Positions 46,066-56,944 of a DNA stretch of 64,000 nt are shown here, one piece after another. Under the pieces are notes generated by a model. It was not told the origin of the DNA, did no database searches, and saw only the letters and a program-made list of their open reading frames with translations. The stretch is from an uncultured bacterium. Lineage in GTDB: Bacteria; Muiribacteriota; Ozemobacteria; Ozemobacterales; Ozemobacteraceae. The stretch lies in the NCBI GenBank assembly GCA_937949615.1, contig CALEDQ010000008.1:700618-764617 (forward strand), in the 5' to 3' direction. Within the stretch, counting starts at the first letter, position 1. Each line of letters opens with the position of its first letter. A program made the position numbers and the translations under genes.

Positions 46066-46094
46066 AGTATAGCAGATAATATAATGAGAGTCAA
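46066..46094 (-). promoter_or_regulatory. Sigma70 promoter for rpmF-plsX-fab
   Basis: Minus strand TTGACT, 17 nt, TATACT. It lies 35 nt upstream of the rpmF ATG. Confidence 0.5.
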
Positions 46095-46143: not shown

Positions 46144-46878
46144 TTAAAGAGGTTTTTCTACTGCAAGACCACATTTACGCGGGTAACGCTCAGACACAGC
46201 GCAGGTTTTGCGAAGAATCAGAAAATTTCTTTCAAACGGTAACTCGGGTGGAGCAAGCCGCAAAATTTCAACATTCTCGACGGCAACAGAAAAAACTGCA
46301 AAGGCATTAACCGATTCTGAAAGCTCCTCGTCAAGCTTCGGACCTTTATAATACAGCGCATAGCCGCCAGTACGGGTCAGAGGCATGGTATATTCAACCA
46401 GAGTTCTGACTGCCGATAATGCCCGGCAGACAACCAGATCGGCCTGCTCTCTGAACTTGGCATCGCGGCCGATCTCTTCTATGCGGGCGTGATGAGTCTC
46501 TATATTGGTAAGACCGGCAGCGGCAGCCATTCTTGCCACAAACTCAACAGACTTCTGCCTGGAGTCGATCGCGACGATCCTGCTGTGCGGCAAAGCCACC
46601 GCCAGCGGTAACGACGGAAACCCGCCACCCGTACCAAGATCAACAATTTTCGCCGATTTCCAGAGTGGAAGATTGAAGCAGACAGGCGCCAGACTGTCGA
46701 GAAAGTGCTTCATTGCCATTTCATGCGGGTCAAATATTTTCGAAACACTTTTATACATAGGGTCGGATAGCATGGCCGATGCAAGCCTGTCGAGCTGCCC
46801 ATACTGCTCTTCAGACAGCCTGATCTTGAGTTTTTCGAGACAGGGAAAAAGAAATTCTCTGATTCTTACCTCATTCAT
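46144..46878 (-). CDS. rsmG: 16S rRNA (guanine527-N7)-methyltransferase
   Basis: SAM motif IVDLGTGGGFPSLPLA. 8-nt overlap with mnmG upstream. Confidence 0.85.
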   Translation of the reverse strand: MNEVRIREFLFPCLEKLKIRLSEEQYGQLDRLASAMLSDPMYKSVSKIFDPHEMAMKHFLDSLAPVCFNLPLWKSAKIVDLGTGGGFPSLPLAVALPHSRIVAIDSRQKSVEFVARMAAAAGLTNIETHHARIEEIGRDAKFREQADLVVCRALSAVRTLVEYTMPLTRTGGYALYYKGPKLDEELSESVNAFAVFSVAVENVEILRLAPPELPFERNFLILRKTCAVSERYPRKCGLAVEKPL

Positions 46879-48760
46879 TGCTTCTACCCCTATTTGTCTG
46901 TCGTTTACGAAGATTCATCAGAATAACTGCCAGATCTGATGCTCTGACCCCGGGAATTCTCGCAAGCGCCCCAACCGTAGCCGGCCTTACCGCCAGAATT
47001 TTCATTCTGGCTTCGCGGCTGACAGCCGCAGGTATAGCCGCAAAGAACTCTTCATCGAGCTCTTCTGCCTGCATGCTTTCACGCAGCGAAAATTCACGTT
47101 CCTGCTGTTCAATATAACCAGAATACTTAATTCGCGCCTCAATCTCCAGAACACCGAGATGATCGAGACCGGAAATTTCCGGGATATAACGGGAAAATCT
47201 GGCCGGAGAAGCATCTGGTCGTCGCAGGAGCTGAGCAAGAGAAACGCTTGAAGCCGGCATTGGGTCTGCGAATTCCGGTAATTGCTCTTTTAACTGAGCT
47301 GGCGTCAAACGAGTTTCTTCTAATCGTTTCTGAATGTCGGCAAGCAGACCATGTCGGGCATTAATACCATTCATCTTGTCAGATGCAAGGGAGCCAAAGT
47401 CGAAAGCTTTTTGCGAAAGCCTCTCTTCGGCGTTGGTCATGCGCAGATTCAGCCTGAAAGGCGAACGTGAAGTAAAAACCCTGTATGGCTCACGAATCCC
47501 GAGGGTGGTAATCTCTTCGACCATAAGCCCGAGATAAGACTGATCGGCATCGAGCACCAGTGGTGTGCGGCCAAGAACGGCGGCAGCCGCGTTGATACCG
47601 GCAAGAATGCCCTGTGCAGCTGCCTCTTCATAGCCAGAGGTGCCATTTATCTGGCCGGCCAGAAAAAGATTCGGAATAGACCTCGACATAAGCGTCGGGT
47701 GCAGGTCAATCGGATCGACGATGTCATACTCGATGCCGTAGCCCGGGCGGGTAATACGCGCGTTTTCGAGCCCCGGCAGAGTTGCAACGTAAGCTTCCTG
47801 AACATCTTCAGGCAGGCTGGTCGAAAGTCCCTGCAGATAAATCTCGTTACTGAACGCCCCTTCGGGTTCAAGAAAAACCTTGTGGGTCTCCTTGTCAGGA
47901 AATTTATTGAGCTTATCTTCGATCGATGGACAATAGCGGGCACCGGTACCGGTTATCAGGCCGGCGATCAAAGCCGAACGCCCGAAGTTTTCTTTGATAA
48001 CCCGGTGCGTTTCTTCTGTAGTGCGGGTAATAAAACACGCCCGACTGGGAAACCGCCTCTCAGCTTTTGACCATAATGAAAATGGCGGAGTTTCCGGGTC
48101 TTCTTCCTGCATTTCGAGACCGGCAAAATTAATCGTGGCAATATCAACCCTCGGTGGGGTACCTGTTTTAAAACGCATAACCGGCAGCCCGATACGCTCA
48201 AGGGCAGCCCCCAGATCGTTGGCAGCCGGCTCCCCTGCCCTGCCGGCAGAAAAACTGACATCACCGATATGGATTTTTCCGCGCAGAAAGGTGCCGGTTG
48301 TAAGAATTACCGCCGGGGCAGACCAGATCTGACCAGAAATTGCCCTGACACCCGCAAGCCTGCCATTTTCAAAATGCAGATCAGAAACCATCGCCTGCAG
48401 AAGCTTTAAATTTGGCTGCAGCATCAGCGACTGCAACATGCGCCGACTGTAAGCCTCTTTATCGGACTGAAAACGATTGGCCTGCACGGCAATCCCTTTT
48501 CGGGTGTTCAGACGCCGTCTCTGAATACTGGTTTCATCGGCGACAATGCCCATTTCTCCGCCGAGAGCATCGACTTCGCGAACCAGCTGGCCTTTACCCT
48601 GGCCACCAATAGACGGGTTACATGGAAGAGCGGCAACCGTGTCGAGATTTATCGTTAAAAGCAGAGTCTGCAGCCCAACACGGGCCGCGGCCAGGGCGGC
48701 TTCACAACCGGCGTGACCGGCGCCAACGACAATAACCTGAAATTCGTTTTTTGCTTTCAC
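46871..48760 (-). CDS. mnmG: tRNA uridine 5-carboxymethylaminomethyl modification enzyme MnmG (copy A)
   Basis: VVGAGHAGCEAALAAAR, PCNPSIGG, GRAGEP, RFKTGTPPRV, RYCPSIEDK and the canonical C-terminal ..VRPATVGALARIPGVRASDLAVIL. Confidence 0.9.
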   Translation of the reverse strand: MKAKNEFQVIVVGAGHAGCEAALAAARVGLQTLLLTINLDTVAALPCNPSIGGQGKGQLVREVDALGGEMGIVADETSIQRRRLNTRKGIAVQANRFQSDKEAYSRRMLQSLMLQPNLKLLQAMVSDLHFENGRLAGVRAISGQIWSAPAVILTTGTFLRGKIHIGDVSFSAGRAGEPAANDLGAALERIGLPVMRFKTGTPPRVDIATINFAGLEMQEEDPETPPFSLWSKAERRFPSRACFITRTTEETHRVIKENFGRSALIAGLITGTGARYCPSIEDKLNKFPDKETHKVFLEPEGAFSNEIYLQGLSTSLPEDVQEAYVATLPGLENARITRPGYGIEYDIVDPIDLHPTLMSRSIPNLFLAGQINGTSGYEEAAAQGILAGINAAAAVLGRTPLVLDADQSYLGLMVEEITTLGIREPYRVFTSRSPFRLNLRMTNAEERLSQKAFDFGSLASDKMNGINARHGLLADIQKRLEETRLTPAQLKEQLPEFADPMPASSVSLAQLLRRPDASPARFSRYIPEISGLDHLGVLEIEARIKYSGYIEQQEREFSLRESMQAEELDEEFFAAIPAAVSREARMKILAVRPATVGALARIPGVRASDLAVILMNLRKRQTNRGRSNE

Positions 48761-50997
48761 TTTTGCAATTGCAGCGCTTTTTCAGCCAGAGACCTGACCG
48801 TTTCATTCGGGTCGGTGGTCAGGCGCTGAAGAAGCTGGAGTGCGTCTGGAGTTTTTTTGCGTGATAACAGCTTGACTGCAGCAATTCTGCAGCTTTCGTC
48901 AGCCAGCTCGGCTGCCTTGTTGATAAGAATCGTCTGGTCATCGCCCATCACGAATGCGAGATCTCTGGCACCCGCTCTTTGATCGTCGATGCTGGCAGAG
49001 CAGAGCTTTGCGTAAATCTCCGCAGACCTTGGCTTGGCAAAAGCCGGCATGCCGGGAATACTGGCCTGAGGAGGAGAAGATACCGGCCTTGCCGGAACAG
49101 ACGGTTTCTGAATACCCGCAGACGGCGTACTGGCAGACGGCAGTCGGCGATCAGGAATGTTCAAAGGTTTCGACTGCATGGCTGAAGATGACGGAGCCGT
49201 CGAAACAGCTGGAACAACCGGGGGTAGAGAAGTTGCAGGTCTGGCAGAGGCAATCGGAGCAACCGGCTGTCTCGGCGCAACCGGCACAGTTACTTGAGAC
49301 GGCGCGTCTTCTACTGGTGGCAAAGATGGCTCGACCGGCGCCAGATCTGGAATCTTCAGACTGCCTGCAGAAGGCAGAGAAGGCTCTGGGGCGGCAGGCG
49401 AAATTTCGGGCAGTACCGGTTCAGGCGCAGATGGGGCTGATGGCCGGGTCGGCTCAACCGGCGAAGAGACTTGCACCGGCGCCACCGGTCGTGGTTGAAC
49501 GGCAGCCGGAGGCGGCTGAACCGGTCTTGGCGGCGCTGCCTGGGGGAATGGTGCGGCCGGTTTCATCTCTTCGCGCATAGGCGTATCTTTGATTTTTTCG
49601 AAAAGCGAAGCCGCAACCTGAGCAACGACCGGGTCAGGATCACCGCAGGCGGCTTTAAGCACCTGACGTGAAGTGTTGTTGTTAATTCTGGCCAGAGCTT
49701 TGAGAACGCTGAGCCTGATACCCTGGTTCGGATCTTTGAGAGCAGCCTTGAGCAGGGTTAAAGATGGCTGATCACCGATTTCTCCGAGGGCAAAAATAAC
49801 ACTGTCGCGCAGCCATACTTCTTGAGATACCAGCATCGAACGAAGGGTGAGAAATGCCTGCTGAAAACCGTTTTTAACAAGATATTTGGCGGCATTGACC
49901 TTAACGCGGTTTTCAGGGTCTTCGAGCAATTGAACGATGTTCTGCTCGCATCCCCTTATGTTCTGTTCCTCGATGACTTCGACGGTATTGGCCCTGACTC
50001 TTGGGTCTTCATCCTGCAGGCAGCGAATCAGAGTTTCAAGGCCGCCTTCGCGGCTGCTTCTGGCAAAAACCTTTACCAGCCCAGACTTAACGATAACATC
50101 CTTTTCTTTGAGCAGAATGCTTTCGAGCATTGCCGGATTGAGTTCGACATCGGGTTCCATGATAATTTTCAACATGAGAAAGCGCCGCTGTGAAGAAAAC
50201 TGCTCGTCTGCGAGCATGAACGGGATCTGTGGCGGAACCCGGCGGTCTTTCAAATTAAACAGCGTCTGCAGAGCCGTCAACGCCACCTCTTCGAGCATGC
50301 TGCGCGCCAGCTGCAGAAGCTGAGTTACATGCCCCGAAGGCTTTTTGACTCCGAGAGTCTTGATATGCTGCAGAAGAGTCGAGATATCGGTGATTTTCTT
50401 AAGATCCGGCAGAGATGGATCGACCGGGTCGTCAAGTTCTGGGGGAGCTGCGGGCACAACGTTCGAGGCTACCGAAGGCTGGGCAGAACCATGAGAAAAG
50501 CTGCCAGATACTGCTGCAGGTGAAGGGGTCGCCGGCAATGGCTGAGAAGGGCGTGGCAAGGTGGCTGGCGATGCACTGGCAGGCATGCTTGGTTGAAAGG
50601 ACCTGGCAGCAGGCGGCAAAGTCTGAGACTGGCCAGGCAGAGGGCCGACCGACGGTTTTACCGGCAAAACCGGAGCCGCCGGCGGATTAACGGCAGGCTG
50701 CTCATCTGGCGGTGCTACCGGTGCTGGCGGTGCTACTGGCGCCGACGGTGCCACAAAAGCAGGCTCTGGAATCTGCAACTTTGCTTCACCATCGCCACTC
50801 AGCTTTGCCAATGCCGCCTGGGCAGCATTGCGAACGCTCTCGTCAGAATCGCCGAGAACCTTCTGAATACAGGCAATTTTTTCGTTGACAGGCATGGCAG
50901 GCAGATTAACCAGTTGTTCAATGGACATGCATCGAACCTCAGCAGAAATTGAGCGGAGATTCTGAATAATCAATTCCTGACGTTTCTTGTTAATCAT
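48757..50997 (-). CDS. HEAT-repeat protein with two long proline-rich linkers
   Basis: HEAT/PBS-lyase-like units (DSDESVRNAAQAAL, DEDPRVRANTVEVI, DPENRVKVNAAKYL, DPNQGIRLSVLKAL, DPDPVVAQVAASL, DPNETVRSLAEKAL). They are separated by P/A/S/V-rich stretches (APVAPPAPVAPP..). ATGA overlaps at both ends with the mnmG copies. Confidence 0.75.
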   Translation of the reverse strand: MINKKRQELIIQNLRSISAEVRCMSIEQLVNLPAMPVNEKIACIQKVLGDSDESVRNAAQAALAKLSGDGEAKLQIPEPAFVAPSAPVAPPAPVAPPDEQPAVNPPAAPVLPVKPSVGPLPGQSQTLPPAARSFQPSMPASASPATLPRPSQPLPATPSPAAVSGSFSHGSAQPSVASNVVPAAPPELDDPVDPSLPDLKKITDISTLLQHIKTLGVKKPSGHVTQLLQLARSMLEEVALTALQTLFNLKDRRVPPQIPFMLADEQFSSQRRFLMLKIIMEPDVELNPAMLESILLKEKDVIVKSGLVKVFARSSREGGLETLIRCLQDEDPRVRANTVEVIEEQNIRGCEQNIVQLLEDPENRVKVNAAKYLVKNGFQQAFLTLRSMLVSQEVWLRDSVIFALGEIGDQPSLTLLKAALKDPNQGIRLSVLKALARINNNTSRQVLKAACGDPDPVVAQVAASLFEKIKDTPMREEMKPAAPFPQAAPPRPVQPPPAAVQPRPVAPVQVSSPVEPTRPSAPSAPEPVLPEISPAAPEPSLPSAGSLKIPDLAPVEPSLPPVEDAPSQVTVPVAPRQPVAPIASARPATSLPPVVPAVSTAPSSSAMQSKPLNIPDRRLPSASTPSAGIQKPSVPARPVSSPPQASIPGMPAFAKPRSAEIYAKLCSASIDDQRAGARDLAFVMGDDQTILINKAAELADESCRIAAVKLLSRKKTPDALQLLQRLTTDPNETVRSLAEKALQLQK

Positions 50998-52901
50998 CTG
51001 GTTTCCTCATGCCTTTCTTGTCTATCGCCATCTTCAGAAAGAACCGATAAAAGAATAGCAATTTCCGACCGCGTAAGGCAATGTTTTCTTACCATCTGAC
51101 TCAGATCGTCGAATCTGGAAGAACCAAGAATCTGCCTGGCCTGGTCTGATAACGCATGTAGTCGATGATCAGAGGTTTCCAGCGGCAGCCTGACTTTTTC
51201 AAGAAAACTTGTCTGAACAATCTTTTCTGCTTCGCGATCTGCATAACCCCGATATTTTATCTCGGTTTCGAGCGCATAAACTTCATCGACCGCAGTCAAC
51301 CTTGAATTTTCTGGCTGCTGCAGAAGATCCATTACATTGTTATAGGTGACCCCCGGGCGCTGCAGAAGTTCTGCTCCCGAAGCAGGTTTTTTAAGATCGC
51401 CGGTTGCCAGTCTGGCAAGTCGTTCACGCGCCTCGCCACTAGGCAGAAGACTCAGAGCCGAAAGCCGGGTGATTTCCCCTTCGATTCGAGCCGACCATTC
51501 AAAAATCGTAGAAAACCGTTTCTGATCGACAAGCCCAATACGAAAGCCATCGGCTGCCAGACGCCGTTCTGCGGAATCATCGCGCAAGGTCAGCCTGAAT
51601 TCTGCATGGCCCGGTGTAATACGGTATGGCTCAGGTTTTTCCCAGGTTGAGAGGTCGTCGACAAGCACTCCCAGATAACTGCGTGTTCTGGATGGCCAGT
51701 AGGGGGCCTGTTTTCTCAGGGCAAGAACTGCGTTAATACCCGCAATAAGGCCCTGGCCGGCAGCTTCTTCATAGCCAGAAGTACCATTGAGCTGCCCGGC
51801 GGTATAAAGCCCCTCGATGACTCGGCTTTCCATGGTTTTTCTGATCTGGCCGGGTGCCAGTGCATCGTATTCGATTGCATAGCCATATCTGAGAATCACG
51901 GCATTTTCAAGGCCGGCAACGCTGCCAACGATATCCTGTTGAGCTGCAGGCGGCATTCCGGTGGTAAGCCCCTGCAGGTAAAGTTCCTGCGATTCCCAGC
52001 CTTCGGGCTCAACAAAAACCTGGTGCTTCACCATATCAGGAAATTTGATGATTTTGCGATCGATTGAAGGACAATGTTTCGGGCCATCATCGGTTATGTT
52101 CTCAAGAACAAGGGGACTCTCGCTCAGATTTCTTCTGACAGCCTCAACCGAGCGCTCATCGGTAAAAGTCAGATAACAGGAAATCTGCTTCTCATAGCGC
52201 CTGAGACGGTTTTCCCAGAGAAACCCGCCGGCATCGACGTCACCGGGCAATTCAGTCATAAGATTGAGGTCGACCGAACTTTTAAGAATTCTTGGCGGGG
52301 TAGCAGTCTGCAGGCGGCGAAGCTTGACTCCGGCCGCGGTAAGAGAATCAGACAATCCGACAGCCGGGCTCTGATTCTGAGGTCCCCCAGGCCAGGTTGC
52401 CCGCCCGAGAATAATACGGCTGTTAAGATAAGTACCAGAGGTCAGAATAAGCTTTTCGCAGCCAAACACAAGACCGGTTTCGAGTCTGACACCTTTTACA
52501 CGGCCTGATTCAACAAGCAGACCAGTGACATGCCCCTGCCGAAGAGTCAGATTCGGAGTAGCAAACAACGTCTGCAGCATTCTCTGCCGATAGAGATATT
52601 TGTCTGCCTGAGCCCTTCTTGAACGAACTGCCGGCCCTTTCGAAGTGTTGAGCCATTTCATCTGCACACAGGTTTCATCGATACATCGTGGCATTTCACC
52701 GCCAAGAGCACCGATTTCTCTGACCAGATGACCTTTGCCCGGCCCACCGATACTTGGGTTACAGGGCATCAAAGCAACCGTCGAAATATTCATCGTTATC
52801 AGCAGAGTCTCTGCTCCAAGTCTGGCAGCAGCCAGAGCAGCTTCACAACCGGCATGGCCGGCTCCGATTACGATTACTGCATATTCTTTTTTCTGACTCA
52901 T
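50994..52901 (-). CDS. mnmG: MnmG paralog (copy B, divergent tRNA-binding and C-terminal segments)
   Basis: VIGAGHAGCEAALAAAR, PCNPSIGG, NTSKGPAVRSRRAQADK and KHCPSIDRK are conserved. GRAGEP is replaced by GGPQNQ. The C-terminal helical motif is divergent (RFDDLSQMVRKHCLTRSEIAILL). Confidence 0.85.
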   Translation of the reverse strand: MSQKKEYAVIVIGAGHAGCEAALAAARLGAETLLITMNISTVALMPCNPSIGGPGKGHLVREIGALGGEMPRCIDETCVQMKWLNTSKGPAVRSRRAQADKYLYRQRMLQTLFATPNLTLRQGHVTGLLVESGRVKGVRLETGLVFGCEKLILTSGTYLNSRIILGRATWPGGPQNQSPAVGLSDSLTAAGVKLRRLQTATPPRILKSSVDLNLMTELPGDVDAGGFLWENRLRRYEKQISCYLTFTDERSVEAVRRNLSESPLVLENITDDGPKHCPSIDRKIIKFPDMVKHQVFVEPEGWESQELYLQGLTTGMPPAAQQDIVGSVAGLENAVILRYGYAIEYDALAPGQIRKTMESRVIEGLYTAGQLNGTSGYEEAAGQGLIAGINAVLALRKQAPYWPSRTRSYLGVLVDDLSTWEKPEPYRITPGHAEFRLTLRDDSAERRLAADGFRIGLVDQKRFSTIFEWSARIEGEITRLSALSLLPSGEARERLARLATGDLKKPASGAELLQRPGVTYNNVMDLLQQPENSRLTAVDEVYALETEIKYRGYADREAEKIVQTSFLEKVRLPLETSDHRLHALSDQARQILGSSRFDDLSQMVRKHCLTRSEIAILLSVLSEDGDRQERHEETR

Positions 52902-52903
52902 TG

Positions 52904-54280
52904 TTATTTTCCGATACAGAACCGTTCAAAAATCAGGTCAAGCGTGTTTACGTCGACCGTCTCGCCATTAACCCGCCCAAGCTCCCTGACGGCCTCTTCA
53001 AGGTCGATTGCCAGCATATCCTGGTAAATATTACCAATGCCGCGATCAGCTCTTTCAAGAGCAGTAAGAGCCTTGTCAAGAGCTACTGACTGCTGGGCGC
53101 CAAGCAGTATCATCTCTTCATAGCCAGAAAGACCACTTTCGGCGATAATCTGGGAAATCGCTTTCTGCAACTCAGGGAGCCCCTGCCCTTTCAGGGCTGA
53201 AACGCTCAATTGCCTGAGTCCGGCAAAAATTTCCGGGTTGATCTGCTGCGGCAGATCAGACTTATTGAGAACGGCTATGACAGGCTTTCCTGACTGCCTC
53301 AGACGGTTCAGAACAATCTCGTCTTCTGCTTTCACAGGCTGCGAACCGTCAAAAACGCCAATCAGCGCAAAAGCTTCGTCGGCTGCCTTTGAGGTTCTCT
53401 CGATGCCGATTGCCTCAATACGGTCACCGGGTTGACGCATTCCGGCCGTATCAATTATTTTAACCGGGTATTCTCCGACCATCAGCGTTTCTTCAAGGGT
53501 GTCTCTTGTGGTGCCGGCGATTTCTGTAACAATGGCCCGGTCGCGACCAAGCATATAGTTCATCAGGCTTGATTTGCCAGAATTCGGCCGCCCGAGCAGA
53601 GCAATCTTCAGTCCGTCGGCAACCAGTGCGCCGCTTCTCGCATTTCTGGCAAAAATTTCAAGTTCAGCAAGAATCTTTTTAATTTCACGAGCCAACAGAT
53701 GTTCGTCTATAGCCTCAATCGCGTCTTCAGGAAAATTCAGACTTGCTTCAAGCTGTACCAGATGATGCATAATCCGGTCACGAATTCTTGCGACAAACTG
53801 CGAAGGCAGGCCATCGAGCTGATTCAATGCCAGCCGGGCCTGCGAAGAGGTATTGGCAGAAAGCAGCTGCGAAACAGCCTCAACTTCGAGCAAATCCATT
53901 TTTCCGTTCAGAAAAGCTCTTCTGGTAAACTCACCGGCCTCAGCAGCACGGGCACCATGTTTTAAAAGCAGCTGCAGCACCCGGCTGACTACCAGTGGAT
54001 TACCATGTGTCGAAACTTCCGCCAGGTCTTCGCCTGTGTATGATCTTGGCGCCGGAAATGTCGTGACCAGGCACTTATCTGCTACTAACCCGGTATCAGG
54101 CTCAATCACCGAACCGAAATAAACAGAATAAGGCAGGGGGAAAGCTTTCTTTCCCCCTGTGATAAACAATTTCTTCAGGATTTTGAAGGTATCAGGCCCA
54201 GAAACCCTGATCAGGCTGATCGCCGACCTGCCGGCAGGTGTTGAAACTGCGGCGATCGTGTCAATCTTCGGTTTAGACAT
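52904..54280 (-). CDS. mnmE: tRNA modification GTPase MnmE
   Basis: MSKPKIDTIAAVSTPAGRSAISLIRVSG, G-domain motifs GRPNSGKSSLMN / DTAGMR / NKSDL, and the terminal FCIGK. The ATG at 54280 has GGAGGAAG upstream and overlaps the jag stop (ATGTCTAA). The ORF-track start 54373 is rejected. Confidence 0.9.
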   Translation of the reverse strand: MSKPKIDTIAAVSTPAGRSAISLIRVSGPDTFKILKKLFITGGKKAFPLPYSVYFGSVIEPDTGLVADKCLVTTFPAPRSYTGEDLAEVSTHGNPLVVSRVLQLLLKHGARAAEAGEFTRRAFLNGKMDLLEVEAVSQLLSANTSSQARLALNQLDGLPSQFVARIRDRIMHHLVQLEASLNFPEDAIEAIDEHLLAREIKKILAELEIFARNARSGALVADGLKIALLGRPNSGKSSLMNYMLGRDRAIVTEIAGTTRDTLEETLMVGEYPVKIIDTAGMRQPGDRIEAIGIERTSKAADEAFALIGVFDGSQPVKAEDEIVLNRLRQSGKPVIAVLNKSDLPQQINPEIFAGLRQLSVSALKGQGLPELQKAISQIIAESGLSGYEEMILLGAQQSVALDKALTALERADRGIGNIYQDMLAIDLEEAVRELGRVNGETVDVNTLDLIFERFCIGK

Positions 54281-55322
54281 CTTCCTCCATGAACATCGGT
54301 ACAGCGCTTGAAGTCTCAAGCTTTTCTGAAAAATCAGAATCGCCTTCGTCTGCAACCGGCTGCCACTCGGCATTCATGCCACCTTTTTTCTTGCGCATCG
54401 GCGAAATGACGACACGACGCATTGGTTCGGTTCCCTTTGAGAAAGTTTCGATATCGGTGCGGTCTTTCAGAGCCATGTGAATTGTGCGGCGATCAAGGGT
54501 CGACATTGGCTCGAGTTCGACCTGGCGGCGGCTCGAAACTGCCTTTTTGCACATGCGCTGTGCCAGCATGATGAGATTGCGGTAACGCTTTTCGCGGTAT
54601 CCCTGAGCATCGAGAACCAGCTTGATGCGATCGTCATTGCCCTTGTTAAGAATAATATTCATGAGATACTGAAGAGAATCGAGCGTGCGCCCGCGCTTGC
54701 CAATAAGCTGTGAAACATTCTCGCCGCTGGCTTCGATAACCCAGGCGCCATCGCGCATAAAATCAACGAGATCAAGCTGCTCGATGCCAACATTGGCGGC
54801 CACATCACGAATCAGCGAGAAAATCTCGTTATACTCCGGATGTGCCTTAACTTCGGCTGTAACAGGCTCTCTTGGGCGTTCAGGAAGGTGAATTTCGACT
54901 TCTTCGGCACCTTCACCTGCTTCAGAATAATTGCGACGCGGCGGGCGATTGCGGTTCTGCCGTCTGGGCGGTCTTGACTGGCGCCGTGGTGGCATTGCAT
55001 CGCGTTCATCGGCATTATTATCTTCATTACTGAAATCATCAACCTTTGCAGGTCTGGCGGCTCTTTCGACCCGCGGCTCATCGAGCGGCCGGCGTTCGGC
55101 AATTTTTTCGGTTCTTTCGACTTTGGGTGCCGGAGCGGGCTTTTCACCAATGGTAAAGCGAATCTTGTATTCCTGCTTGCCGACGAAACCAAAAATGCCA
55201 CGGGCCGGGGCAGACAGAACTTCAGTAGCCACAATCATTTCATTACCATTAAGTTCGCCGTTGGCAATGCCTTTGGCTTCCTCTTCAGTTTTTGCAATAA
55301 TCTCGATAGTTCTTGTAGACAC
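54273..55322 (-). CDS. jag: Jag/KhpB RNA-binding protein (Jag_N, KH and R3H domains)
   Basis: Jag_N-like MSTRTIEIIAKTEEEAKGIA. KH-type IGKRGRTLDSLQYL. R3H-type ELEPMSTLDRRTIHMAL. An R/P-rich insert RRQSRPPRRQNRNRPPRR. Confidence 0.8.
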   Translation of the reverse strand: MSTRTIEIIAKTEEEAKGIANGELNGNEMIVATEVLSAPARGIFGFVGKQEYKIRFTIGEKPAPAPKVERTEKIAERRPLDEPRVERAARPAKVDDFSNEDNNADERDAMPPRRQSRPPRRQNRNRPPRRNYSEAGEGAEEVEIHLPERPREPVTAEVKAHPEYNEIFSLIRDVAANVGIEQLDLVDFMRDGAWVIEASGENVSQLIGKRGRTLDSLQYLMNIILNKGNDDRIKLVLDAQGYREKRYRNLIMLAQRMCKKAVSSRRQVELEPMSTLDRRTIHMALKDRTDIETFSKGTEPMRRVVISPMRKKKGGMNAEWQPVADEGDSDFSEKLETSSAVPMFMEEDV

Positions 55323-55324
55323 AA

Positions 55325-56944
55325 TTATTCCTCCTTAATGGCAGCCGCGATGCGGTTAGCCTGTAACTGCTGAAGTAATCCGAGAACGCTGCTGGCAAAC
55401 CAGTATACCAGCAGACCGGCCGGCAGTGACCAGGTGATGACAAACATGAACATCGGCATGAAAGCCATCATCTGCTGCTGTTGCGGGTCGGTCATTTTGC
55501 CCTGCTGATAATACATCAGAAGAGCAATCGCAATCGGCAGGATAAGTAACGGGTCGCCCTTGGAAAGGTCGGCGATCCAGAGAAAAGGCGTTTTTCTAAG
55601 TTCAACCGCAATTCTGATAGTGTTGTAAAGAGCGATCAGAATCGGCAGCTGAAGCAACAACGGCAGACAACCGCCAAGCGGGTTGACATTATTTTTCTGA
55701 TAAAGTTTGAGAACTTCTTCATTGAACTTCTGCGGATTATCTTTATAGCGGTCTTTGAGATCCTGCACTTTAGGCTGCATCTTCTGCATCTGTGCCATCG
55801 ATTTCGTCTGTTTGAGAGTCAGCGGGTAAAGAACTGCCCGCACCAAAATCGTCATAAGAATAATCGCCAGCCCATAGTTCGGAAAAAGGCCATAAAAGAA
55901 CTGCAGCACTCTTAACAGAATGGTACTGAGAAAGCCATATTCAGAGACCTGGCCACGATTGATGCTGGTAAGTTGATCGAGAATCATCGGACCGGCATAA
56001 ACGCGAAACTTGAATGTTCTTGTCTCTCGCGCGCCAAGATTGAACTTTGGCACTACACAACTGATGTTGAAACCCTTATGAGGTTTGTGGCGCTGGTCGG
56101 TTGAAGAGACTTCATAGGCAGTAGCCCCGACTCTTGCCGACTCATCGGCTTCGAGGAGAACACAGAAATACTGATCCCGTAATCCAACTCCATTATAGGC
56201 GCCGGCGACAGCACCTTTTCCATTAAAATCCTTAACGTCAGAAAACTTTTCGACAGCTCCGGGTTTTAGACCGAGCAGGCTCATCGGACCATATGGATCG
56301 AGAAAAACGCCGGGCCCGAAGCTCATTGCCAGCGAACCACTCTCGTCATTACCAACACTGACCAGTTGGTCTCTAAGGTTGCTGACAATGTGTTCAACAT
56401 TAAAATGATAAGCATTTTCGTGGAAGGTGAAACGCTTGGTGAGAGACAATCCCTGGCTGGCAGAAGCGTTTGCTTCTGCCAGTGAAACATTGGCAGTAGC
56501 TCTGATAACAACAGCTTCAGCTGTCTGCTCTTCAACCTCGACAGTATAACCCGAGGCATTTAATGGCTGACTGACCAGCTCGCTCAAGAATGGCCGCAGA
56601 TTTTCTGCCGGAATGTTGTAGCCGAGGTCTTGAATTACGGGCGGGTAAAGGTTCTCTTCAAAACTTGCTCCCTTGAGGTAGTAGACACTCGGGCTGCCAG
56701 TCCGACTCGAAAGAATTACACGAAGCAGGCGGGTTTCCAGCGAAGCATCTTTGAGACCATCTCCATCGACATCTTCGACCTTAACAGTCATTGGCACGGT
56801 ATTTTGAGCAGACACCGGGGTCTGAGCCAACAGGAGATTTGCATGGCAACAAAAAAGAACCAATAACAGAAACGAGCAGAAAAGCCTGCCCGTCAAAAAA
56901 TTAAAGCTAAAATTCATTTTTCTGGTCAGGCCTGTTCTAGTCAT
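55325..56944 (-). CDS. yidC: Membrane protein insertase YidC (long form with a periplasmic P1 domain)
   Basis: The C-terminal 60-kDa-IMP core has YGLAIILMTILVRAVLYPLTLKQTKSMAQMQKMQPK, NPLGGCLPLLLQLPILIALY and PAGLLVYWFASSV. It is preceded by a periplasmic domain of about 300 aa. Confidence 0.9.
   Translation of the reverse strand: MTRTGLTRKMNFSFNFLTGRLFCSFLLLVLFCCHANLLLAQTPVSAQNTVPMTVKVEDVDGDGLKDASLETRLLRVILSSRTGSPSVYYLKGASFEENLYPPVIQDLGYNIPAENLRPFLSELVSQPLNASGYTVEVEEQTAEAVVIRATANVSLAEANASASQGLSLTKRFTFHENAYHFNVEHIVSNLRDQLVSVGNDESGSLAMSFGPGVFLDPYGPMSLLGLKPGAVEKFSDVKDFNGKGAVAGAYNGVGLRDQYFCVLLEADESARVGATAYEVSSTDQRHKPHKGFNISCVVPKFNLGARETRTFKFRVYAGPMILDQLTSINRGQVSEYGFLSTILLRVLQFFYGLFPNYGLAIILMTILVRAVLYPLTLKQTKSMAQMQKMQPKVQDLKDRYKDNPQKFNEEVLKLYQKNNVNPLGGCLPLLLQLPILIALYNTIRIAVELRKTPFLWIADLSKGDPLLILPIAIALLMYYQQGKMTDPQQQQMMAFMPMFMFVITWSLPAGLLVYWFASSVLGLLQQLQANRIAAAIKEE

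Follow-up and report, generated by a model that had tools for sequence, protein, structure and literature searches.

A conserved pair of MnmG paralogs behind mnmE in Riflebacteria, with a family-specific HEAT-repeat gene between them

MnmE and MnmG form a nearly universal machine for tRNA wobble modification, and mitochondrial disease results from defects in GTPBP3 and MTO1, their counterparts in humans. A bacterium of the Riflebacteria has two mnmG genes between mnmE and rsmG, with a gene for a HEAT-repeat protein lying between the copies. We analysed a 64,000-nt stretch of its DNA (the window; coordinates below are positions in it), and comparison with other genomes shows a conserved MnmG system of two paralogs at this locus, in which a B-type mnmG directly follows mnmE and a canonical A-type mnmG follows B. 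Here copy A is mnmG-A, of the canonical type, and copy B is mnmG-B, of a B-type subfamily defined in this analysis; f1 is the Riflebacteria family of the window bacterium, and f2, f3, f5-f7, f9 and f10 are other Riflebacteria families.

Organisation of the locus

The open reading frames place mnmE, mnmG-B, the HEAT gene, mnmG-A and rsmG in this order on the minus strand, preceded by yidC and jag, an upstream order that is common to the Riflebacteria and Firmicutes loci.

55325..56944, minus strand: yidC, upstream gene of the conserved cluster (Pfam 60KD_IMP/YidC_periplas)
54273..55322, minus strand: jag/khpB, upstream gene of the conserved cluster (Pfam Jag_N/KH/R3H)
52904..54373, minus strand: mnmE, tRNA U34 modification GTPase (TIGR00450, 379.5 bits, cut-off 252.6)
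50994..52901, minus strand: mnmG-B, 635 aa, ATG start, full length (TIGR00136, 661.0 bits)
48757..50997, minus strand: HEAT-repeat gene, 746 aa, ATG start, orphan family (PF13646, 3.7e-37)
46871..48760, minus strand: mnmG-A, canonical-type MnmG, 629 aa, GTG start (TIGR00136, 702.8 bits)
46144..46878, minus strand: rsmG, 16S rRNA m7G527 methyltransferase (TIGR00138, 109.7 bits, cut-off 99.5)

Open reading frames, Pfam and NCBIfam thus bear out the first-pass annotation, which had described mnmG genes of 629 and 635 codons around a HEAT gene of 746. The mnmE product closes with the conserved FCIGK motif; its longest reading frame runs about 100 nt into jag, so that the true start is probably further downstream. 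Read directly, the junctions are tight. The mnmE stop is followed by CA and then the ATG of B, giving a 2-nt spacer; B and the HEAT gene overlap by 4 nt (ATGA), as do the HEAT gene and A (GTGA, the start codon of A being GTG); and rsmG starts 8 nt inside the end of mnmG-A (ATGAATGA). The ATGA junction after B and the 8-nt overlap into rsmG had been reported correctly in the earlier reading, and only its second ATGA has to be replaced by GTGA.

In run X2, contigs from an RNA library span each of the 30 bins of the stretch, and in runs X14 and X15 they span parts of it (two studies); with DNA carry-over possible, this weakly suggests that the stretch is expressed. Among the RNA-library contig pieces listed, none bridges the B/HEAT junction and only run X13, probably DNA, bridges the HEAT/A junction. 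A scan for promoters and terminators returned consensus matches only, the best promoter-like site on the minus strand being at 46094-46066, past rsmG.

Two intact MnmG copies and the B-type subfamily

Both copies are recognised by the GIDA family in Pfam (PF01134; A 1.1e-152, B 1.8e-138) and score above the 524.85-bit cut-off of the MnmG equivalog TIGR00136 in NCBIfam, covering model positions 1-615 and 1-614 of 616. Against E. coli MnmG, copy A aligns with 535 bits and copy B with 504 bits over residues 7-625 (chains 9hip/3cp2), while A and B are 39% identical to each other (249/634, E 5e-137). Models of TrmFO gave 48-75 bits against cut-offs of 262-429, and this identity was rejected for both. 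The window genome contains exactly two full-length MnmG genes, a third, shorter gene of the GIDA family elsewhere, and one MnmE match above cut-off; from the single mnmE adjoining the pair, formation of cmnm5/nm5 U34 together with MnmE is the predicted role. Every motif quoted in the earlier reading was found in the copy to which it had been assigned: PCNPSIGG and CPSI in both, NTRKGIAVQANRFQSD in A, and GGPQNQ, QTATPPR and a divergent C-terminal segment in B. The C-terminal domain PF13932 is matched by A (1.3e-7) and not by B, and of the residues of the C-terminal bundle A retains E585 and K589, where the B of the window has Q585 and I589.

The residues known from mutagenesis (Table S3 of PMC12397908) are kept in both types. 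C47, N48, K56, R96, T199, T201, C277, K283, Y308, Y377, R427 and R436 are retained in 19/19 Riflebacteria B copies and each in 17/18 or 18/18 of the A copies, R436 being M in one A. In the FAD-binding GxGxxG motif, G13 is present in 19/19 B and 17/18 A copies (the eighteenth has a gap), and G15, together with the catalytic cysteines C47 and C277, is present in all 19 B and all 18 A copies. Even within the changed QTATPPR and CPSIDRK motifs, which are canonical in A, B retains T199, T201, C277 and K283. At dS of 0.58-0.87, dN/dS is 0.026-0.040 for mnmG-B and 0.042-0.049 for mnmG-A, compared with 0.063-0.080 for mnmE (dS 0.17-0.72). Both copies are old, intact and under strong purifying selection.

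What distinguishes B is a set of four substitutions. K198Q is found in 19/19 upstream Riflebacteria copies (canonical K in 136/137 proteins), G200A in 18/19 (G in 134/137), E281D in 19/19 (E in 137/137) and D282R in 19/19 (D in 120/137). Copy B of the window has all four (Q198, A200, D281, R282), in two short segments:

52290..52310, minus strand: B-type signature 1, QTATPPR, residues 198-204 (canonical KTGTPPR)
52053..52073, minus strand: B-type signature 2, CPSIDRK, residues 277-283 (canonical CPSIEDK), inside MnmG-specific motif 1

The DNA pattern used for signature 2 matched contig positions 752670-752690, which are window positions 52053-52073. Among 157 unrelated representatives the signature is all or none, with all four residues in 12 and none in 145. 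The MnmG phylogeny that had been proposed at first pass was run, and it places the B-types in a clade of their own (SH-aLRT 98% in a 93-row tree, 99% in a 75-row tree) that includes the B of the window and, in the 75-row tree, the Firmicutes B proteins. Judged by signature and tree, the B-type is a discrete MnmG subfamily and the pair in the window is not a local duplication. One B-type representative, the MAG protein P0137, is labelled Fusobacteriota. The changes found in every B-type all cluster in insertion domain 2, within and beside motif 1, and Q198, A200, D281 and R282 sit in the tunnel toward the flavin. In the E. coli complex described in PMC12397908, motif 1 lines the entrance to FAD, is the proposed site of NADH binding, and docks MnmE's C-terminal helix.

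The pair is widespread in the phylum. At least two MnmG genes are present in 32/41 related genomes, and of six genomes with a single match five have a cut or partial one. The B signature occurs in 68/87 genomes of the phylum and in 41/44 of those of high quality (the reversed pattern, used as a control, gave 0 matches). Among the two-copy Riflebacteria genomes fetched, 16/17 have the order mnmE-B-(HEAT)-A-rsmG or B-A, the exception being G028, in which the two mnmG genes lie on separate contigs. By longest-ORF calls, B and A overlap or stand at most 2 nt apart in 7/8 Riflebacteria loci outside f1. Genome G036 (100% complete) has a single canonical mnmG and no B, and the signature pattern was found in none of six f9/f10 genomes (70-84% complete). 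Outside the phylum, yidC-jag-mnmE-B-A-rsmG recurs in 4/4 Orenia-like metagenome loci and in 12/12 fetched genomes from the phylum of G087, shorter contigs showing the part that fits; these Firmicutes-type pairs include proteins named Orenia metallireducens, Natroniella and Sporohalobacter salinus, and genomes G094-G389. In the contiguous loci examined, which cover most Riflebacteria families and 16/16 Firmicutes-type loci, B always lies between mnmE and a canonical mnmG, and no B-type lacking a canonical neighbour was found among the loci and genomes compared. A second full mnmG copy was found in 0/80 other bacterial loci, which served as a control (ordinary MnmG genes returned through a generic pattern in the B-alignment search of genome contigs), and in 0/75 remaining metagenome loci. 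The B-A pair is known here from two phyla, the Riflebacteria and the Firmicutes type. No paper on a duplicated bacterial mnmG was found in the literature searched, in which subscription journals are thinly covered.

Compared with the reference system, the MnmG (GidA) homodimer of E. coli in its MnmE-MnmG alpha2beta2/alpha4beta2 complexes (PDB 9HIP/9HIQ/9HIR, 3CES, 3CP2; PMC12397908), A and B of the window align end to end with E. coli MnmG, keep the FAD site, C47, C277 and K283 of motif 1, and likewise adjoin rsmG and an mnmE whose product ends in FCIGK. Unlike E. coli, however, the window has two genes for non-identical MnmG subunits, and its B departs from the E. coli protein at the four signature positions, which are 98-100% conserved in canonical MnmG (88% for D282). 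In f1, moreover, B has neither E585/K589 nor the signature of the PF13932 bundle, and A is changed at S87, P90, E434 and R554, which lie in segments that touch MnmE in the structure from E. coli. The Firmicutes pairs resemble the window in signature and gene order (16/16 loci), but they have no HEAT gene between the copies, their B keeps R174/G176, R432, E585, K589, P595 and G606, and their canonical partner has D282 replaced by S, G, T or A in 12/16, whereas the Riflebacteria A keeps D282 in 18/18.

These comparisons bear on the proposal, made at first pass, that the two copies have diverged in a complementary manner. Of 124 conserved positions, f1 has lost 15 in B and 10 in A, whereas in six loci of f3, f5, f6 and f7 copy A lost one and copy B four; most of the divergence is thus f1-specific drift. 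The f1-specific fixed differences, 14 in A and 15 in B, are scattered across every domain and form no clear hot spot for binding. Loss of E585, K589, P595 and G606 from the C-terminal bundle of B is specific to f1, apart from E585, which is also lost in 2/3 f2 B copies. The B of Orenia, Natroniella and Sporohalobacter keeps all known MnmE- and tRNA-binding residues except the four signature positions. Nor are the segments emphasised earlier the marks of B, which are K198Q, G200A, E281D and D282R: GGPxN is not tied to B, since the Orenia-like pairs have it in their A-type copy. With A canonical in the six loci outside f1 and f2, and GGPxN changing partner, complementary degeneration was rejected as a general rule.

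The HEAT-repeat gene

The protein encoded between the two copies matches HEAT_2 (PF13646; 126.9 bits against a cut-off of 27.7, E 3.7e-37, in six stretches) and also HEAT_PBS (PF03130). An AF2 model predicts all-helical modules joined by disordered linkers:

50791..50997, minus strand: N-module, aa 1-69, 4 helices in the AF2 model
50443..50790, minus strand: linker 1, Pro/Ala-rich, aa 70-185, predicted disordered (pLDDT about 40)
49570..50442, minus strand: core, aa 186-476, about 16 predicted helices (pLDDT 87-98)
49057..49569, minus strand: linker 2, Pro-rich, aa 477-647, predicted disordered (pLDDT about 40-50)
48760..49056, minus strand: C-module, aa 648-746, 6 predicted helices, slightly basic (pLDDT 89-96)

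The predicted helices of the N-module (residues 2-13, 19-30, 37-45 and 53-66, pLDDT mostly 77-95) belong to a region that is conserved in two ortholog alignments (A2, A3). The core measures 291-295 aa in 66/66 orthologs and holds 70 of the 81 columns that are invariant over 66 sequences, and the C-module is 96-99 aa long in 66 orthologs, with a median pI of 9.2. Linker 1 varies from 34 to 207 aa across 65 orthologs (median 22% Pro) and linker 2 from 39 to 263 aa (median 26% Pro). Charge analysis gave a neutral core and a mildly basic C-module, a result that favours neither tRNA binding nor tRNA mimicry. By Foldseek the modelled core is closest to alphaRep/PBS-HEAT solenoids (E 3.5e-8 to 3.4e-5), with a TM-score by target length of 0.57-0.74 against alphaRep and YibA chains, and Foldseek and the ESM Atlas returned generic HEAT solenoids only and no functional lead. 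The predicted fold is that of the PBS-lyase-type HEAT proteins (the alphaRep scaffold family, E. coli YibA 1OYZ, NblB, the PP2A A subunit), from which the protein differs in its three modules, its proline-rich linkers of 34-263 aa, its fixed place between two mnmG genes and its restriction to f1. Identity as NblB or a bilin lyase was rejected (62.6 bits against 300, NF045915), as were phycobilin lyases (20.8 against 330, NF058502; 23.1 against 600, NF058505).

A homologue search returned 80 orthologs at E <= 6.3e-104, the next match falling to 1.7e-23. A full-length or nearly full-length ortholog is present in 45/50 other f1 genomes, and the gene lies between B and A in 8/8 contiguous f1 loci from six genera, with an overlap or gap of no more than 7 nt on either side in most of these loci. 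At a dN/dS of 0.12-0.13, it evolves faster than the flanking genes. The B-A pair occurs without it in other families of the Riflebacteria and in Firmicutes, so the HEAT protein is not integral to the paralog system. The insertion of the gene was late and is limited to a single Riflebacteria family, f1, and the recurrence of mnmG-HEAT-mnmG in relatives, suggested as a check at first pass, holds within f1, the pair standing elsewhere without HEAT. The literature searched, where coverage of subscription journals is thin, yielded no paper describing a HEAT protein as a partner of MnmEG.

Possible arrangements of the two MnmG subunits

The reading that we favour, at a probability of roughly 0.5, is that both MnmGs would join MnmE in xm5U34 synthesis, most likely as an A·B heterodimer, with the HEAT protein as an f1-specific accessory. 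The heterodimer would replace the usual MnmG homodimer and could offer active sites or docking faces of two non-equivalent kinds. In f1 the gene for the HEAT protein, with its three folded modules on long proline-rich tethers, was inserted later, its stop and start codons overlapping those of the mnmG genes, and the protein would serve as adaptor or tether and not as a core part. In the E. coli alpha2beta2 complex, as described in PMC12397908, just one MnmG subunit binds MnmE and FAD, the MnmE and tRNA sites overlap, and a single tRNA is bound per dimer; by analogy, such half-of-sites behaviour would provide a mechanistic rationale for an A·B heterodimer. A heterodimer or two specialised enzymes had been named at first pass as the choices, aptly so, as A and B are tightly coupled.

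Several observations weigh against this reading. With A canonical in the six f3/f5/f6/f7 loci and the Orenia, Natroniella and Sporohalobacter B keeping its MnmE and tRNA residues except the signature, either protein could be a self-sufficient homodimer; the G028 genes are non-adjacent; and B is not universal in the phylum. It is possible, if somewhat doubtful, that separate homodimers A2 and B2 share MnmE and differ in chemistry through the altered tunnel of B (K198Q, G200A, E281D, D282R), in which case B would differ in its amine (glycine, ammonium or another), its reductant, or its set of tRNA or RNA substrates. The replacement of Asp by Arg in the proposed NADH motif is reminiscent of switches from NADH to NADPH. 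When paralogs of a homodimer are co-expressed, they tend to form heteromers unless selection acts against it, and this tendency counts against separate homodimers. In favour of separate homodimers, the changes common to all B-types cluster in insertion domain 2, no MnmE- or tRNA-contact residue is lost in the basal B-types, copy A outside f1 and f2 is of the canonical type, two amines are already used by E. coli MnmEG (PMC3936742), and RlmFO, a paralog in the TrmFO family, switched from tRNA to 23S rRNA (PMC4081110). TrmFO and RlmFO, being short GidA-family flavoenzymes, offer a precedent for a new paralog substrate, whereas A and B are full-length MnmGs. Yet strictly adjacent genes that keep B before A and overlap at stop and start codons in two phyla point to subunits produced in equal numbers more than to independent enzymes, and every B-type found had a canonical neighbour. 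That either copy is merely a spare, is decaying, or acts as a regulator without catalysis is very improbable and already largely refuted: the conserved positions lost in f1 (15/124 in B, 10/124 in A) would fit it, but the catalytic and FAD residues are all retained in both copies, both align end to end with TIGR00136, their dN/dS of 0.03-0.05 is equal to or below that of mnmE, and the pair is kept in two phyla. An assembly artefact or recent local duplication has a negligible chance of being correct; nothing was found in its favour, and the earlier denial of it is upheld by an identity of 39% and by recurrence of the pair in 32/41 related genomes, as well as in other phyla whose assemblies are independent.

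The accessory role of the HEAT protein has its own competing explanation, since the gene could be an unrelated passenger that landed in the f1 ancestor and was kept by a well-expressed operon, with no part in tRNA modification. This is a tenable suggestion towards which we do not lean. Its absence from the same pair in other Riflebacteria families and Firmicutes, its merely generic HEAT similarity, its faster evolution (dN/dS 0.12-0.13) and the absence of a clear f1-specific hot spot on A or B all agree with it. On the other hand, position is fixed in the 8/8 contiguous f1 loci from six genera, with tight junctions in most, orthologs occur in 45/50 other f1 genomes, the core is extremely constrained (291-295 aa in 66/66, 70 invariant columns), and it is in f1 alone that B lost E585, K589, P595 and G606 together, in the bundle that contacts MnmE in E. 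coli. Complex prediction for the HEAT N-module and core with full-length B scored 0.00 twice with controls not folded, and counts neither way. A bolder extension of the heterodimer, which we regard as unlikely, is that an obligate, asymmetric A·B dimer hard-wires half-of-sites behaviour, with MnmE and FAD on one subunit and tRNA handled by the other; the tunnel residues of B would set a different chemistry at one of the two sites, and the tethered three-module HEAT protein would be a new MnmEG subunit that in Ozemobacteraceae-like Riflebacteria makes up for the MnmE-contact elements lost by each copy.

The E. coli work leaves open the way in which a single MnmG dimer, with surfaces that overlap, combines MnmE docking, flavin loading and tRNA binding (PMC12397908). 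Here one MnmG of a pair has substitutions at four residues of the flavin entrance that are invariant otherwise, and the HEAT insertion is a candidate extra component without precedent in the literature searched. The pair is also found in proteins of the Halanaerobiales genera Orenia, Natroniella and Sporohalobacter, so that cultured strains, or their genes expressed in E. coli, could be used in place of uncultured Riflebacteria. If the favoured A·B reading is true, this would be a natural system with two non-identical MnmG subunits, whose halves could be mutated and labelled separately.

Organisation and expression of the cluster

The cluster holding the two mnmG genes comprises, in window positions:

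55325-56944, minus strand: yidC
54273-55322, minus strand: jag
52904-54373, minus strand: mnmE
50994-52901, minus strand: mnmG-B, the upstream copy (635 aa)
48757-50997, minus strand: HEAT-repeat gene (746 aa)
46871-48760, minus strand: mnmG-A, the downstream copy (629 aa, GTG start)
46144-46878, minus strand: rsmG
downstream of rsmG, minus strand: plsX, fabK and fabD

Both mnmG products score above the curated equivalog cut-off of TIGR00136 (524.85 bits), at 702.8 bits for A and 661.0 bits for B, and each can be aligned over its whole length with MnmG chains of E. coli (A 535 bits, B 504 bits); identity between A and B is just 39% (249/634). By the organism names that NCBI gives to its closest proteins, this genome belongs to Candidatus Riflebacteria, near Ozemobacteraceae. 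It contains two full-length MnmG genes in all and a single MnmE above cut-off, and a third GIDA-family gene, shorter and distant from the cluster, has a size that fits a TrmFO-like protein. Read from the sequence, 2 nt separate the mnmE stop from the ATG of mnmG-B, and stop and start overlap as ATGA between B and the HEAT gene, as GTGA between the HEAT gene and A, and by 8 nt between A and rsmG. The overlapping junctions of the first-pass annotation were correct, save that mnmG-A starts with GTG, which makes the second overlap GTGA.

The longest ORF of mnmE shares about 100 nt with the end of jag (window 54273-54373). Its TrmE_N domain begins at residue 39, mnmE orthologs are 437-489 aa long, and on the minus strand the true start is probably further downstream than 54373. 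The region's best sigma-70-like match is a consensus match only (46066-46094, minus strand; TTGACT, 17 nt, TATACT, upstream TG). Situated between the rsmG and plsX genes, it may be where a separate plsX-fabK-fabD unit begins.

Pairwise Nei-Gojobori comparison of the window with three close relatives (two of the three for rsmG)
Gene; dS; dN/dS
mnmG-B; 0.61-0.87; 0.026-0.040
mnmG-A; 0.58-0.70; 0.042-0.049
HEAT gene; 0.70-0.81; 0.119-0.130
mnmE; 0.17-0.72; 0.063-0.080
rsmG; 0.61-0.78; 0.045-0.067

Contigs of at least 95% likeness from metatranscriptome run X2 lie over all 30 bins of 46144-54373, and 14/30 and 12/30 bins are covered in runs X14 and X15, the three runs coming from two studies. RNA libraries can contain DNA, and this coverage gives a slight indication that the cluster is expressed. 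Among the listed RNA-library pieces the rsmG/A and B/mnmE junctions are bridged and none lies across the HEAT junctions, which gives a single transcript no support.

Outside the window, contig C16 of the same genome (G000) carries on its minus strand (L200:1330-3336) a 668-aa ORF with a full tRNA-guanine transglycosylase at residues 3-337 (Tgt, TIGR00430, 429 bits) and a C-terminal MnmC2-like methyltransferase region at residues 383-611 (NF033855, 55.5 bits, below the cut-off of 136). Judged by these domain matches, it may join in one protein two activities that modify position 34 of tRNA.

A B-type subfamily of MnmG and its distribution

An alignment was made of 196 MnmG proteins, comprising the two of the window, 36 from fetched loci, E. 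coli MnmG (whose numbering is used) and 157 representatives or near hits. The 31 entries of Table S3 of PMC12397908 give 33 residue positions as functionally important in MnmG. G13, G15, C47, N48, G52, G53, K56, G68, R96, G156, T199, T201, C277, K283, Y308, Y377, R427 and R436 are kept in A and B, with at most one Riflebacteria sequence as an exception. The 19 upstream copies differ from 137 canonical proteins at four positions, namely K198Q (19/19 upstream copies; K in 136/137 canonical proteins), G200A (18/19; G in 134/137), E281D (19/19; E in 137/137) and D282R (19/19; D in 120/137). Among the 157 outside proteins this signature is all or none, 12 having all four residues and 145 none. B-type proteins form a single clade with SH-aLRT support of 98% (93 rows, LG+C20 PMSF quick search) and 99% (75 rows), which FastTree also supports. 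Two metagenome proteins, P0206 and P0181, fall in or beside this clade without the signature (KKEH and NGEE at the four positions); they may represent reverted or intermediate forms, or long branches that the trees misplace.

All four signature residues are situated in insertion domain 2, and residues 281 and 282 lie within 'MnmG-specific motif 1' (273-287). The passages of PMC12397908 that concern this motif describe it, from cryo-EM of the E. coli complex, as turning ordered when MnmE binds and as the docking place of the MnmE C-terminal FCIGK helix at the flavin entrance, and mention an earlier proposal that it binds NADH.

At least two MnmG matches were found in 32 of 41 related genomes, one in 6 and none in 3. 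Four of the single matches have a contig break beside the gene and one is partial, so that G036 (100% complete) is the sole genome with a lone copy, canonical in type, not explained in these ways. From 19 genomes, 20 stretches were fetched and annotated by BLASTP against the window proteins. The mnmG-HEAT-mnmG arrangement, for which a check of recurrence had been proposed, recurs within the window's own family f1, where the order mnmE, B, HEAT gene, A, rsmG is found in 8/8 contiguous loci of six genera; it does not extend to families f2, f3, f6 and f7, in whose eight loci A follows B directly and the HEAT gene is absent. By longest-ORF calls, B and A overlap or are separated by at most 2 nt in seven of these eight loci and by a 338-nt gap in the other, and in the f5 genome G028 they are on separate contigs. 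One f3 genome has its B copy in two pieces (G040:C210:1059-3097; model positions 1-339 and 321-614) beside an intact downstream copy, which reflects either a broken gene or an assembly frameshift.

A DNA pattern for the B-type motif CPSIDRK was matched in 68/87 genomes of the phylum and in 41/44 high-quality ones, with no control matches. By family the matches were f1 44/50, f2 9/10, f3 9/9, f5 2/2, f6 1/4, f7 1/1 and f11 1/1, with none in f4, f8, f9 and f10; these are undercounts, as an f6 locus (L017) is B-type by alignment yet lacks the pattern. Neither an MnmG match at E <= 1e-50 nor the B-type pattern was found in the f4 genomes G027 (91% complete) and G033 (94%), and the MnmEG pathway may be wholly absent from this family.

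The pair is also found outside Riflebacteria. Profile A1, built from 22 B-type proteins, retrieved proteins that have the B signature and carry the names Natroniella sulfidigena, N. acetigena, Natroniella sp., Sporohalobacter salinus and Orenia metallireducens, and 68/119 checked proteins from this search have the four signature residues (QADR). With the Orenia protein as query, 79 loci were obtained on metagenome contigs. The order (yidC-jag-)mnmE, B-type mnmG, canonical mnmG, rsmG is shared by the four closest (100, 97, 72 and 72% identity); 73 loci have one canonical mnmG and 2 have one gene in two pieces. In the phylum of G087, the genome that holds locus L110 and is titled Neomoorella sulfitireducens, the CPSIDRK DNA pattern was found in 15 of 301 sampled genomes and a reversed control in 2. 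The 12 whose letters encode CPSIDRK were fetched, leaving out G303, G296 and G348 (middle codon R, T or W), and G296, with CPTIDRK, may carry a variant of the signature. All 12 have the order yidC, jag, mnmE, B-type mnmG, canonical mnmG, rsmG; as a control, 80 mnmG loci of other bacteria were compared, and none had another mnmG inside roughly 6 kb. D282 of the A partner is replaced by S, G, T or A in 12/16 Firmicutes-type pairs (including loci L116-L117 and L210-L219), a count that rests on related organisms, and is kept in 18/18 Riflebacteria A proteins. Its loss may represent co-variation with R282 in B-type partners.

The 75-row tree joins the A partners of Orenia-like pairs to Clostridia-type canonical MnmG (SH-aLRT 90%), and together these are the sister of the B-type clade (89%). 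The B proteins of Riflebacteria together make up one subclade (99%), which branches from within the non-Riflebacteria B-types, and Riflebacteria A proteins are placed elsewhere among the canonical proteins (92%). These placements are consistent with the B-type having arisen near Firmicutes and been transferred to an early Riflebacterium, landing between mnmE and the resident mnmG. With tree supports below 95%, the B-type may instead stem from an old duplication followed by many losses.

The HEAT protein and changes peculiar to its family

In the 87 phylum genomes a strong match to the HEAT protein (E <= 4e-70) was found in 45/50 other f1 genomes; of the others, two have contig-end fragments and three (64-85% complete) have no match. 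Outside f1 the same search gave generic HEAT hits only, in unrelated places (E 1e-21 to 1e-28). A collection of 5.8 billion proteins contained 80 relatives at E <= 6.3e-104, the next match being at 1.7e-23, and all 13 that are organism-named belong to Riflebacteria, Rifleibacteriota or Ozemobacteraceae. An AlphaFold2 model (mean pLDDT 74.8, pTM 0.48) has three all-helical folded modules (aa 1-69, 186-476 and 648-746; pLDDT mostly 87-98), between which are two proline- and alanine-rich linkers, predicted to be disordered. In an alignment of 66 orthologs the core is 291-295 aa long in 66/66, and the linkers span 34-207 aa and 39-263 aa. By Foldseek the protein resembles alphaRep/PBS-HEAT solenoids, E. 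coli YibA and the PP2A A subunit, and the ESM Atlas gave generic HEAT clusters only. Identity as an NblB or a bilin lyase was rejected, the NCBIfam models scoring far under their cut-offs. The modelled fold suggests a binder and nothing further. It is somewhat probable that the protein is an accessory of the MnmEG machine; that its gene is a passenger is a less likely, though appreciable, possibility.

Conserved positions lost, out of 124 columns at least 90% conserved in the 137 canonical proteins
Copy; f1; f2; f3, f5, f6 and f7 together
B; 15; 15; 4
A; 10; 4; 1

The divergence of A and B that had been described as complementary is real but family-specific, with few losses in f3, f5, f6 and f7. 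In f1 the losses in B include R275K, T430P, S431G, R432H, E585, P595 and G606, K589 becomes hydrophobic and the PF13932 match is absent. Those in A include R405, D415, D416, E434P and D442, with S87R, P90I/L and R554Q at less conserved sites. Several of the f1 changes map to segments through which E. coli MnmG contacts MnmE (82-92, 427-431, 434-437, 548-555 and 608-622). The GGPxN variant (P174, N176) does not mark B as such; among Orenia-like pairs the A partner carries it.

How the pair may work

MnmG, MnmE and HEAT repeats are all already known. A literature search covering few subscription journals found neither a conserved second, signature-bearing MnmG nor a HEAT gene fixed between two mnmG genes. 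The organism has two intact, selected and non-equivalent MnmG proteins and one MnmE; their gene order is fixed and their coupling tight across two phyla, and the HEAT insertion is restricted to one family.

The main rival explanation is that A and B are two homodimeric enzymes differing in amine, reductant or RNA substrate. In its favour, the flavin entrance is where the four signature residues are placed, and basal B-types are otherwise canonical in character; we regard it as rather unlikely. Co-expressed paralogs of a homodimer tend to pair, and because of this tendency, the invariable adjacency and order of the genes and the finding of no B-type without a canonical neighbour, we propose instead that A and B would work together with MnmE to make xm5U34, most likely in the form of an A·B heterodimer (probability about 0.5). 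In the account of the E. coli complex within PMC12397908, MnmE and FAD are bound by a single MnmG subunit, the site for MnmE overlaps that for tRNA, and there is one tRNA per dimer. By analogy, this asymmetry would agree with an A·B heterodimer.
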